Positions 2,757 through 12,978 of a DNA stretch of 13,791 nt are shown here, piece by piece. The notes under the pieces are model-generated. The model had not been told where the DNA came from, searched no databases, and saw only the letters and a program-made list of their open reading frames with translations. How positions within the stretch are numbered: position 1 is the stretch's first letter; each line of letters begins with the position of its first letter. The stretch comes from Nitrospinota bacterium. Lineage in GTDB: Bacteria; Nitrospinota; Nitrospinia; Nitrospinales; VA-1. Position numbers and translations under genes: made by a program. The stretch covers positions 5,216 through 19,006 of the forward strand of contig JAYNIA010000050.1 of NCBI GenBank assembly GCA_038108555.1, read 5' to 3'.

Positions 2757-3476
2757 TTACTCCGCATGTTCATCGAGGCCTTGTTCCAACTCGCCCATAA
2801 ACAGAACTGCCTCTTCTTTTGAGGGATTTTTCTCTTTAGCTTTTCGAGCAGCAATTTCTTCCAGCTCTTCTTTACCTTCTTTTGTTTCTCCCCAACATTC
2901 AAATCCTTCTTTTTTTATTTTTTTGATGGCTTCTGTAACCTTTTTAATTTTTTCACCACTCACATCCCTGAGAGAGACAAAGGCATCTTCGTGTCCATCA
3001 TATTGACAGAATGCCATGGTGTAGCAGTTGGTGTTTGCACGGATCATTTTTAAAGTAATATTCGCAAAATGACAGTGGACGCCAATTAAAATACAGGATT
3101 CAATTTTATTATGCTGGATGGTCAGGTTTGGATGACAAGGGTTGATTACCTGTTCCGGGTCAATTTTTGGATAAATGGGACGGTAATCAGGCATGGTAAT
3201 AATATTCATGCCGGGAACTTCATCACGCAACTGTAAAGCCAATTCAGCTTTTTTCATCGTTTCTTCGGTCCAACCCCAAACCATCATGGGACCTGGAAAA
3301 AGGGTGGGGTTCCGTCGTGATAAAATTTCACGGGCGGCTTTTTCAATTGCTACTTCCGTGGGAACATGTTCGCCTTCCACCAAATCCATCCCCAAGCCTT
3401 TTTCCGGTTGAAATATGCCCATTGCAGCAGCAGAGGGCGGAAGTAAACCGATTGGACCTAATTCAAATTTGGACAT
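2757..3476 (-). CDS. Delta subunit of five-subunit 2-oxoacid:ferredoxin oxidoreductase (ForD/PorD type; often auto-annotated as CO dehydrogenase beta subunit family)
   Basis: 239 aa with GP...PPSAA.MG, PTLFPGP, MPDYRPIYPKIDPE..INPCHPNLTIQHNKI, IGVHCH.AN..LKMIR and GHEDA..SLRD. I recognise these motifs from ForD/PorD of Hydrogenobacter/Nitrospira-type rTCA enzymes. GGAGG Shine-Dalgarno at 3486-3490. For versus Por is not resolved. Confidence 0.85.
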   Translation of the reverse strand: MSKFELGPIGLLPPSAAAMGIFQPEKGLGMDLVEGEHVPTEVAIEKAAREILSRRNPTLFPGPMMVWGWTEETMKKAELALQLRDEVPGMNIITMPDYRPIYPKIDPEQVINPCHPNLTIQHNKIESCILIGVHCHFANITLKMIRANTNCYTMAFCQYDGHEDAFVSLRDVSGEKIKKVTEAIKKIKKEGFECWGETKEGKEELEEIAARKAKEKNPSKEEAVLFMGELEQGLDEHAE

Positions 3477-10192: not shown

Positions 10193-10585
10193 CTAAATGT
10201 CCTTATATTTTTTCTGCGCGATCTCTTCTTTCTGGCATTCTAAAATATAAGAGTGGATGCTGTCTTCCTGATCGGGATCAAGGCCGACTATTTTGCACCG
10301 GCAGACATTTTTATCATCGATCTTGAGAATTTCGGTTGAAACTTTGAAATTGCCTTTGCCTTTTGGCAGGGTGATTTCCATGGGGTATTTGGCTCCCAGT
10401 TTGAAACCTTTGTTGTCAAAAGAAATTCCACCTGCGCTGATGTCTACCGCTTTCAGGGCAGTGGTTCCCACTTTTAAAATGATGGGGTTTTCTTTTGACG
10501 GGTAAACCCTGAAAGCCCCTCTTGTTTCAGTTGGGTTCTTAAAGAGTTTTTTACCGGTATCTTTACTTTTCTTTTTCCAGAACAA
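10193..10585 (-). CDS. PilZ domain protein (c-di-GMP receptor)
   Basis: 130 aa with RGAFR (RxxxR) and DISAGG (DxSxxG) motifs intact. TTG start overlapping the motB end by 23 nt, with GGAG/GGTAG upstream. Confidence 0.88.
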   Translation of the reverse strand: MFWKKKSKDTGKKLFKNPTETRGAFRVYPSKENPIILKVGTTALKAVDISAGGISFDNKGFKLGAKYPMEITLPKGKGNFKVSTEILKIDDKNVCRCKIVGLDPDQEDSIHSYILECQKEEIAQKKYKDI

Positions 10586-11252
10586 ATTCTACCCTCCTAT
10601 TTTTGGCTCTCCCCGGCGCGGTGTCATTTCTTGCCAAGGGGAAAGTGTCTGCATAACCTGTGGCAGTCATTCGTTCAGGTTCTGCCCCCTTATCAATAAA
10701 ATATCTAAGTACAGCTGTTGCTCGAGCAGCTGAAAGCTCCCAGTTTGTGGGGAACATGGGTGTTGAGATCGGTTCGTCGTCCGTGTGACCTTGAATATGG
10801 ATTTTATAATTCGGGTATTTATTTACTACCCGTATCACTTCATCAAGAACGGGTCTTGCCGCCAATTCTAGATTTGCCTGTGCTGGTTTAAATAGGCTTG
10901 CTCCAGGAACCCGGACAACCACTTTGGCATCGCTGGTCTCGACATCCATTTCGGAGTCTTCAGCGACCTCGCTCATTTCCGACAATATATCGTTTGATTT
11001 TTGCTGTGTCAATTCCTGTATGCTTTCCTTGATCTCGGCACTATCTAAAAGCTCTAAAAGTCCAATACTTGCTTGCTCTTCCCCAATGATGGCTTCCTTG
11101 AATTTCTGCATGTTCATTGAGGCTATCGAGTAATAAAGGATGAAGAATGTCATGATCAGGGTAACCATGTCTGAATAGGTGACCAACCAGAGGGGAGCTC
11201 CTTCTTCTTCTATGATACCCTTTTTTTCCTCTCCGCTGTTTTTGTGGGCCAT
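10563..11252 (-). CDS. motB: Flagellar stator protein MotB/PomB (TM helix plus OmpA-like peptidoglycan-binding domain); possibly the C-terminal part of a longer gene 10563-12155
   Basis: APLWLVTYSDMVTLIMTFFILYYS with the conserved Asp. GHTDD.P, NWELSAARA.AV, GYAD..P and NRRVEF motifs. In frame with the upstream ORF across a single TAA. Confidence 0.92.
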   Translation of the reverse strand: MAHKNSGEEKKGIIEEEGAPLWLVTYSDMVTLIMTFFILYYSIASMNMQKFKEAIIGEEQASIGLLELLDSAEIKESIQELTQQKSNDILSEMSEVAEDSEMDVETSDAKVVVRVPGASLFKPAQANLELAARPVLDEVIRVVNKYPNYKIHIQGHTDDEPISTPMFPTNWELSAARATAVLRYFIDKGAEPERMTATGYADTFPLARNDTAPGRAKNRRVEFVLEKEK

Positions 11253-11276
11253 TTTTTTCAGCCGGTCGGCCCATTC

Positions 11277-12155
11277 TTATTCAATTTTTTCAATTTCCTT
11301 GGCGAGCTTGTTCTCGAATTCTTTTTTCTCTTCAAGCAGCTTTTGTTCTAATTCAATTTTTTCCTTTTCCAGTTCGGCGACGTCAGCTTTTAAATCCTTA
11401 ATGATTTCGGAGGGAAGCTTGGTTTGCCCATCTTCGTCTTTGTTGTCATACATGACTTTTTCATACGAATTGATGAGCTCTGTTTTTTCCTTGATAATTT
11501 TTTCGTAGGCATCAATGCTGTCTTTATGTTTTTTTTCCTGAGCTTTAACCTTCTTTTTCATCTCCTTGGCGGCGTCAGGTTGATTGCGCAACCGTTTTAC
11601 TTCCTGAGCCAGGAGTTCTTTTTCCTTGTCGTTTTGATTGGTTAAACTCGCCTGCTCCTCCATTCTTTCTTCGAGGGCCTGGTTTTTGAGTTTTAATTTT
11701 TTTAAGGCTTTTACGAGCTTGGGGTCTTTGACTTCTTTGACTACTTCCTTTGTTTCTACCACCTTTTCCGGGCTGGGGGCTTCGGATTGGGCTTTAGCCG
11801 CTTTTTTCAGATCATCGGCCAGTTTTTCTTTTTCCTTTTTTTCTTTATCGAGACGTTCTTTTAGCTCTTTTATAAGCTGCTGGTCTTTTTCGCTTTCGCT
11901 GGAAGAATCGTCATCTTCGGAAGATGATTTTTTATCAAAAGAAACTTTTGATCCGGAAGAGGACTGGACGTTTTGGATTTCTTCTTCTTTTTGAGCAACC
12001 GTGGTTTTGAGATCTTCTATTTTTTCGTGGCTGAGTTTGCGGACGTGTTTGATCTTTGCGTCATGCTTGGCTTTTTCAGCATCACGTTTTTTTAACTCCT
12101 TGGCCTGAATTCGGAGTTGTTCTTTGATCATTTCCACGCTATCGCGGGGGTTCAT
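11277..12155 (-). CDS. Lys/Glu-rich coiled-coil protein; probable N-terminal extension of MotB separated by an in-frame TAA
   Basis: 292 aa, highly charged and helical, with no hydrophobic segment. Lies between motA and motB. Reading through TAA 11279-11277 gives EKIE*EWADRLKK-MAHK..., continuing into MotB. Confidence 0.8.
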   Translation of the reverse strand: MNPRDSVEMIKEQLRIQAKELKKRDAEKAKHDAKIKHVRKLSHEKIEDLKTTVAQKEEEIQNVQSSSGSKVSFDKKSSSEDDDSSSESEKDQQLIKELKERLDKEKKEKEKLADDLKKAAKAQSEAPSPEKVVETKEVVKEVKDPKLVKALKKLKLKNQALEERMEEQASLTNQNDKEKELLAQEVKRLRNQPDAAKEMKKKVKAQEKKHKDSIDAYEKIIKEKTELINSYEKVMYDNKDEDGQTKLPSEIIKDLKADVAELEKEKIELEQKLLEEKKEFENKLAKEIEKIE

Positions 12156-12204
12156 AGCAGTGTGGATTCTATTTGTCCGGCATGGGCCGGATTGAAGTTA
12201 ATAT

Positions 12205-12978
12205 TTATCTTTTTACCATTTTTTGTTGCATGGGCCGTCTCAGTTTGGTCGGGATATAGGATGAAAGTTTTTCATAAACCAGCATGGGATTATTATCCTG
12301 AATAATGGAAGCAGCCCCTTCAAAGATGATCTCCAGATTGATTACTTCTATCGATGTTCTGGATTGCAACTTTCCCGCAATGGGATTGAAAACCAGAGAA
12401 GCTAATAAGCTTCCATAAAATGTTGTGAGTAGAGCAACAGCCATGGATGGCCCAACGGTTTCTGGATTGGATAATTTCTGCAGCATTTAAACCAGTCCGA
12501 TCAGCGTTCCAATCATCCCGAATGAGGGCGCGTATAATCCCATTTTTTTGAATATATCCTGTACGATATAATGCCTTTGCTTCATGGATTCAATTTCAAT
12601 ATTCAGCGTGTCCCTCATCATATCTTCCTTGGAACCATCGGCAATGAGGTTACAGGCCTTTTTAAGGAAGTCGGATTCAATTTCCAGCTTACTAAGGGCT
12701 ACGATTCCCTGTCTCCGGCTCAAGGTACATAATTCCACCATGGTGGAAACCATGTCGTTGGCTTCTTCTTTATTTGAAGAAAAGACAAACACAGCGGCCT
12801 TAAATGCCGATTTTACGTCTTCAAACTGGAAGGTTATAAGAGTTGCCGCCAGAGTACCGCCGACTACAATCATCATTCCAGGAAGGTTAAAGAAAGAAAC
12901 AACATCGCCACCAATAAATATGGCTGAAACAATGAGAGCAAGGCCCGAAATAATGCCTGTTAATGAAGCTATATCCAA
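12205..12978 (-). pseudogene. motA: Flagellar stator protein MotA/PomA interrupted by one in-frame TAA (12489-12487)
   Basis: ORFs 12487-12978 and 12205-12486 abut in frame. The joined 257-aa product has MDIASLTG, P..MIV.GGT, APSFGMIGTLIGLV*ML..L..P..VGPSMAVALLTTFYG and PIAGKL. TTG start with AAGGG Shine-Dalgarno. Pseudogene status versus sequencing error or recoding is unresolved. Confidence 0.88.

Follow-up and report, generated by a model that had tools for sequence, protein, structure and literature searches.

The window analysed here, a 13,791-nucleotide stretch of contig JAYNIA010000050.1 (positions 5,216 to 19,006 of the forward strand; GenBank assembly GCA_038108555.1) from a Nitrospinota bacterium, carries on its minus strand a flagellar stator operon in which both stator genes contain an in-frame TAA codon. 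Four features follow one another in this operon: motA (12978-12205), a long frame that joins a coiled coil to MotB (12155-10563), a pilZ-domain gene (10585-10193) and a terminator-like hairpin (10188-10152). The first stop (12487-12489), immediately followed by an ATG, divides motA into a 5' piece of 163 codons with a TTG start (12490-12978), which encodes the transmembrane segments (TM) TM1 and TM2, the cytoplasmic loop and most of TM3, and a 3' piece of 93 codons (12205-12486), which encodes the periplasmic loop, TM4 and the C-terminal tail. The second stop (11277-11279) separates a Lys/Glu-rich N-terminal coiled coil of 292 codons (11280-12155) from the MotB part (10563-11276), which consists of a linker, the TM/plug region (PF13677) and an OmpA-like peptidoglycan-binding domain (PF00691). 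The pilZ gene overlaps the end of motB, is open and encodes 130 amino acids with PF07238 as the only Pfam match; the operon ends with the hairpin of 16 pairs and a T run. Both stops were found inside the MotA and the coiled-coil/MotB frames as described in a first-pass annotation of the sequence, and its observations that there are no frameshifts and that pilZ and the terminator are intact held as well. This was also true of its statement that no other gene of the window is disrupted, as none came up in a genome-wide census of interrupted frames.

Scanned against Pfam, the two motA pieces match successive parts of a single family, PF01618, the 5' piece covering profile positions 4-69 and the 3' piece positions 72-126. 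When the stop was read as X, a single continuous match (4-126) of 92.3 bits was obtained (cut-off 22.9); the MotA N-terminal domain PF20560 reached 26.4 bits, with a cut-off of 27.3. A search of 40 related genomes returned orthologue-level MotA hits with 64-96% identity in 28 genomes, and the 5' piece shows 94-96% protein identity to the intact orthologues of four same-genus genomes. All 28 hits are uninterrupted, unlike the motA frame of the window, which breaks at codon 164, and an internal stop was seen in 0/28; where orthologues carried a '1 TAA/TGA' flag, the eight loci examined had only the true C-terminal stop or none. The stop cuts MotA at the end of TM3, within a conserved GLVQML stretch, at a site where all 11 relatives compared encode Gln (CAG in nine, CAA in two). 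The relatives' codons show the ancestral codon to be Gln (CAA), and the C>T change proposed in the first-pass annotation (CAA>TAA, Gln164>stop) fits this site.

The second TAA also interrupts a gene, as had been claimed, since the coiled coil is continuous with MotB in relatives: a single open frame was present in 8 of the 8 relatives' loci examined, and it measures 486-547 amino acids in all six loci that were fetched whole. The search pattern for the long MotB did not recover the gene in one relative (G017), which has a masked stretch there, and the contig of another (G013) ends before motB. A reading of the second TAA as the normal stop of a separate upstream gene was rejected, given the continuous frame in relatives. 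The gene lies directly downstream of motA, and a pilZ gene follows motB in 7/7 relatives' loci. At the stop site, the three closest relatives have Glu (GAG or GAA), and GAA is also found in two metagenome runs of the same population. The second stop is thus GAA>TAA and not CAA>TAA as first proposed, a change of G>T on the coding strand and of C>A on the plus strand at 11279. Here the ancestral codon is shown, by the same kind of codon comparison, to be Glu (GAA).

Allele distributions were read from assembled (Logan) contigs of four metagenome runs of one study (X1-X4), one of which is possibly the genome's own source; depth was about 3-13, and such contigs can hide minor alleles. The motA TAA is present in the contigs of all four runs, identical to the window, and no sense allele occurs at this site in the contigs of any of the four, so the motA stop is fixed or nearly so. 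At position 11279, the window base (TAA) was found in X1 and X2, whereas X3 and X4 have a plus-strand C (GAA). In both X3 and X4, the GAA allele is linked to a Leu variant at 11213 in the MotB linker, where the window, X1 and X2 have Ile. A further single-nucleotide polymorphism (SNP) at 12040 encodes Arg in the window and Leu in X3 and X4 and is split about half and half within X1; as Leu is also found in close relatives, it is the older state. These three population SNPs of motB (I/L, stop/E, R/L) are all non-synonymous or nonsense, and no indels or joints were found in the operon across the contigs of the four runs. The simplest genealogy places the motA stop first, as it is in all runs, and the motB stop later on part of that background, so that the motB stop would be the more recent allele, still segregating in a lineage already null for motA. 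Because both stops are the only assembled allele in the source run, most molecules there must carry both. The coordinated inactivation of the first-pass annotation is better read as a sequential one, motA and then motB. A population-level allele, also raised there, exists at motB as an ordinary SNP but not as a switch.

Substitution patterns suggest that the operon has not been decaying for long. The ratio of non-synonymous to synonymous divergence (dN/dS) between the window and the nearest species is 0.014-0.029 for motA and 0.055-0.073 for motB, compared with 0.016-0.036 and 0.049-0.074 among intact relatives. As synonymous sites are saturated between the window and the nearest species (dS above 1), these ratios cannot date the stops; they point to an inactivation that is recent relative to speciation. 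At sites invariant in eight other genomes, the stop is the only private change of MotA. MotB has five private changes at otherwise invariant sites, compared with zero to two in three sister species. Two of these form an adjacent Glu-Arg to Pro-Met replacement in the OmpA domain (around 10700-10710 of the window), invariant in six relatives and just before the conserved FPTNWELSAAR; the other private MotB changes number three.

Apart from this operon, the genome encodes three further MotA paralogues (four in all) and two further MotB_plug hits (three in all). A canonical motA/motB pair is open on contig C17, which also carries flhA, and a second long MotB (533 amino acids; C67:6024-7622) is open on C67, where it is accompanied by a motA of its own and a 750-amino-acid open reading frame (ORF). 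A third accessory stator-like set (C80:1165-2075, minus strand) consists of a response regulator, a motB-like and a motA-like gene; in the draft sequence, its only source, the motB-like gene changes frame within six consecutive T of the TM segment. Among 20 relatives, no close orthologue of this motB-like gene was found, the best reaching 51% identity. FlhA, two FliG copies and eight flagellin hits contain no stops. Both FliG paralogues are full-length with 337 amino acids each (C20:23894-24214 and C1:3521-3841), and six flagellin-type hits stand in a row on C28:9918-15432. Two FliG proteins, a row of flagellins and three to four stator sets suggest more than one rotor-stator pairing. No MotA hit was found in 5 of 16 same-genus genomes, one of these being 92% complete. 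In PMC5029188, Nitrospina-type core genomes are stated to encode flagella and chemotaxis, with motility never seen in culture.

The genome is a draft of 86 contigs and 92% complete. To count interrupted genes across it, we listed pairs of ORFs that lie in the same frame, are split by one stop and have a coding-like hexamer score on both sides, which gave 358 pairs, 277 of them totalling at least 150 amino acids. The hexamer score recovers both known stop sites; a codon-usage score missed the motA site. Pfam scans with the stop read as X covered 236 of the 277 junctions, and the resulting count is a lower bound, as only stops spanned by a Pfam domain score and the motB stop itself is not scored. 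In 12 of the 236 junctions, including motA as the control, a single Pfam domain spans the stop. Six of these stops are TAA (MotA, a receiver domain on C15, an FGE-sulfatase, a pyruvate kinase, an Eco57I-type methylase and a dCache sensor), five are TAG (HD_5, Cu-oxidase_3, a cNMP-binding protein, AhpC-TSA and a receiver domain on C67) and one is TGA (HDOD). Besides motA, the single stops within Pfam domains are located at C10:33153 and 36495, C15:8173 and 21646, C19:30208, C26:9487, C28:29315, C36:25024 (and 23419), C6:13501 and 87677, and C67:3553. Most of these 11 genes function in sensing or signalling. The dCache match is below the Pfam cut-off and sits in a TM-Cache-TM-PAS architecture. 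Two further cases are less certain: on C2, a Tll0287-like match extends over a TAA, and on C36 the methylase-like gene has two TAA, of which the first belongs here.

Two of these other stops proved to be polymorphic when the four runs were compared over a locus on C15 (C15:7773-24670). The receiver-domain TAA reads GAA in X3 (place 401 of the locus), the copper-oxidase TAG reads TGG in X2 (place 13875), and X4 has a further AAA>TAA change in the same response regulator gene (place 614). Among the 25 variable sites of the locus, non-synonymous changes (about 13) outnumber synonymous (3) and nonsense (3) ones, and 6 sites fall outside long ORFs; transitions are about equal to transversions. This variation looks very young and barely filtered.

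Overall, these data support an ordinary recent loss of function, in which two real single-base nonsense mutations probably switched off one redundant stator operon of a Nitrospinaceae-like population. This was the first of the explanations offered in the first-pass annotation, and it agrees with the ancestral sense codons, the polymorphism of one stop and the low dN/dS, as well as with two other stator sets, an intact flagellar core and at least 11 other genes with single in-frame stops. In the model that we propose, motA was hit first. The A and B subunits of a stator work only as one complex (MotA5B2), and for this reason the motA stop would have killed the whole unit. The motB gene would then have drifted without constraint, gaining its stop and amino-acid changes; in a complex of two subunits, it is unsurprising that the partner gene should be hit as well. 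The loss would be tolerated because the canonical MotAB set and the second long-MotB set remain, and no recoding, editing or switching mechanism would be needed. We estimate a chance of roughly 5-20% for an adjacent pair, given a dozen or more such genes among about 2,800.

Several observations weigh against this interpretation. An ATG directly follows the motA TAA and another in-frame ATG lies eight codons past the motB TAA, so the downstream pieces could be translated; the total loss of function that we infer would be incomplete where these ATGs allow it. In addition, double hits are somewhat frequent in this genome: a sensor and an HD-GYP regulator are interrupted 3.3 kb apart on C10, two TAA occur in the methylase-like gene on C36, and the response regulator on C15 has two stops. 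Our rough neutral expectation is about 1.5 double-hit cases, which leaves room for selection for loss. Finally, the contigs come from four runs of one study, one of them perhaps the source of the genome, which limits the independence of the runs and leaves minor alleles invisible.

Selection for loss would imply that accessory stators, second-messenger signalling and two-component sensing are being shut down in parallel in an estuarine nitrite-oxidiser population. Among strong interrupted genes, 7 of 11 act in sensing or motility, compared with 12 of 143 uninterrupted junctions with Pfam hits (Fisher P = 3.5e-5; classes assigned by us). The seven are MotA, the long MotB, two response regulators, the HD-GYP-type HD_5 protein, the HDOD protein and the cNMP-binding protein; the 11-gene set predates confirmation of the dCache sensor and the Eco57I-type methylase, which are both outside it. 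The frameshift in the motB-like gene of the C80 stator-like set, the two different stop alleles of one response regulator in different runs and the same-genus genomes that have no MotA hit point in the same direction. However, an equal enrichment is expected if random stops survive only in dispensable genes, and the concentration in sensing and motility fits either such a filter or selection for loss. The motA and motB hits are moreover not independent, domains with good models, the receiver domain among them, are more readily detected by Pfam, and the C80 frameshift has been seen in draft sequence only. At the C15 locus, one unascertained nonsense SNP among 17 coding SNPs is close to the 4-5% that we roughly estimate for unselected changes. 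We consider adaptive loss possible but unlikely. If true, it would mean that the behavioural streamlining of a free-living bacterium has been caught in progress, with the order of hits, motA and then motB, readable from samples.

Alternatively, the stops might have split the operon into four working genes, with a two-piece MotA made by re-initiation at the TAA-ATG, a free coiled-coil protein and a shorter MotB translated from the ATG at 11252-11250. This ATG would open a MotB of 229 amino acids, which is of normal length and has complete plug and OmpA domains (PF13677 at residues 15-54 with 53.3 bits and PF00691 at residues 120-219 with 67.6 bits, both above cut-off), and it replaces a Phe codon (TTC) of the three closest relatives. 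The ATG directly after the motA stop and the lack of further decay in MotA would also suit a functional fission. Yet the ATG at 11252 also occurs on the GAA haplotype, and the contigs of that haplotype show just two differences from the window over this stretch. It thus predates the motB stop and was not created as a rescue, and we rejected it as a sign of fission. No Shine-Dalgarno-like purine run precedes it. Fission also accords poorly with the position of the motA cut, which falls in the conserved GLVQML stretch where TM3 ends, with the lack of any split among the 28 orthologues and with the private changes of MotB at otherwise invariant sites. Moreover, the fused long MotB is the rule among homologues, and short forms are mostly on short contigs or look frameshifted. 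Taken together, a functional fission appears improbable.

It is still less probable that the stops result from consensus errors, damage or mis-assembly during the reconstruction of the genome from metagenomes, the second explanation of the first-pass annotation. The draft state of the assembly and the low depth in the runs speak for such errors, and G>T changes, as at the motB site, can arise from oxidative damage in libraries. This is contradicted by the assembly of the motA TAA in 4/4 runs and of the motB TAA in 2/4, with the other allele forming a consistent two-SNP haplotype, by the two other stops that were likewise assembled as stop/sense alleles, and by the mixture of changes (C>T, G>T, G>A and A>T), which bears no single damage signature.

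The last of the first-pass explanations was that a suppressor tRNA, programmed readthrough or editing lets TAA be decoded as an amino acid, which would tune the stator or act as a reversible switch. Both stops are indeed TAA, and Gln, which would be expected at the motA site, is the amino acid inserted by ochre suppressors derived from Gln tRNAs. On the sequence evidence, recoding is nevertheless excluded, as TAA is the most used terminator (661 of 1,222 ORFs of at least 300 codons) and also ends motB, the suppressor-tRNA check suggested in that annotation found no anticodon TTA, CTA or TCA among 36 tRNAs and one tmRNA (ARAGORN, 92%-complete draft), the stops of interrupted genes elsewhere include TAG and TGA, the 28 orthologues all lack the stop, the motB site is a plain SNP with a Glu alternative, and neither site, both being single-base substitutions in non-repetitive context, has a repeat or homopolymer to drive a switch.

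Besides its interruption, the long MotB is of interest as a protein. No Pfam family covers its N-terminal extension in our scan. Homologues of the coiled-coil part (n = 95) are mostly 469-511 amino acids long with PF13677 and PF00691, and two of them are named Nitrospina or Nitrospinaceae by their sources. One of the short forms, P0004 (327 amino acids, on a 15,352-base contig from another metagenome), ends in a frameshifted-looking reading of the linker just before the TM segment, which may mean that this stator type has been broken repeatedly in nature, or may reflect a contig error in an A-rich run. The operon represents a conserved stator type, defined by a coiled-coil-like, cytoplasmic extension of MotB of about 290 residues and a co-encoded PilZ protein, and our literature search on MotB with an N-terminal coiled-coil extension returned no paper describing such a MotB. 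Further upstream in the window, the minus-strand regions 247-2442 and 2757-3476 contain two tandem CheX-like phosphatase genes, cheR and a single-domain response regulator, adjoined by the gene of a 239-amino-acid protein with a CO dehydrogenase beta / acetyl-CoA synthase epsilon domain (PF02552).

For metagenome-assembled genomes, the operon serves as a caution: in-frame stops that are clean and leave the motifs intact are no sure sign of recoding, and when a two-subunit machine decays, neighbouring stops within its operon are what one sees. Two by-products may outweigh the main finding. One is the population's many young stop/sense polymorphisms, concentrated in sensing and motility genes, which could reveal which behaviours are dispensable to marine nitrite oxidisers. 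The other is the conserved, undescribed stator type, with its coiled-coil MotB and PilZ protein.

Compared with known systems, the operon resembles stop-codon reassignment or suppression in having in-frame stops inside otherwise intact genes. It differs in the lack of a suppressor tRNA, the use of TAA as the commonest terminator, the presence of all three stops in broken genes and the absence of stop conservation. Stator-acting PilZ proteins provide a second comparison: PMC11725899 names FlgX of Campylobacter jejuni as such a protein, along with YcgR/MotI. As with FlgX, a PilZ-domain gene is co-encoded with the stator genes here and is kept in relatives, but the 130-amino-acid protein matches only PF07238, and any likeness to FlgX would lie in gene content.

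Closer parallels are found among multiple-stator systems and segregating pseudogenes. MotAB/MotCD of Pseudomonas, PomAB/MotAB of Shewanella and MotAB/MotPS of Bacillus are well-known multiple-stator systems. Like these, the genome studied here combines several MotA/MotB-type sets with one flagellar apparatus, such that one set can be lost without losing motility; unlike them, it has a broken set whose operon includes a PilZ gene and whose MotB is extended N-terminally by a coiled coil of about 290 amino acids. The features of nonsense pseudogenes that segregate in bacteria are all present: each stop is a single-base change from an ancestral sense codon, every relative examined has an intact orthologue, a sense allele persists at one site and many other genes of the genome are similarly hit. 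Nothing essential sets the operon apart from such pseudogenes, other than that two adjacent, coupled genes are hit and that the order of the hits can be read from the runs, with the motA stop in all of them and the motB stop in half. What we describe is standard pseudogene formation in a multi-stator bacterium.

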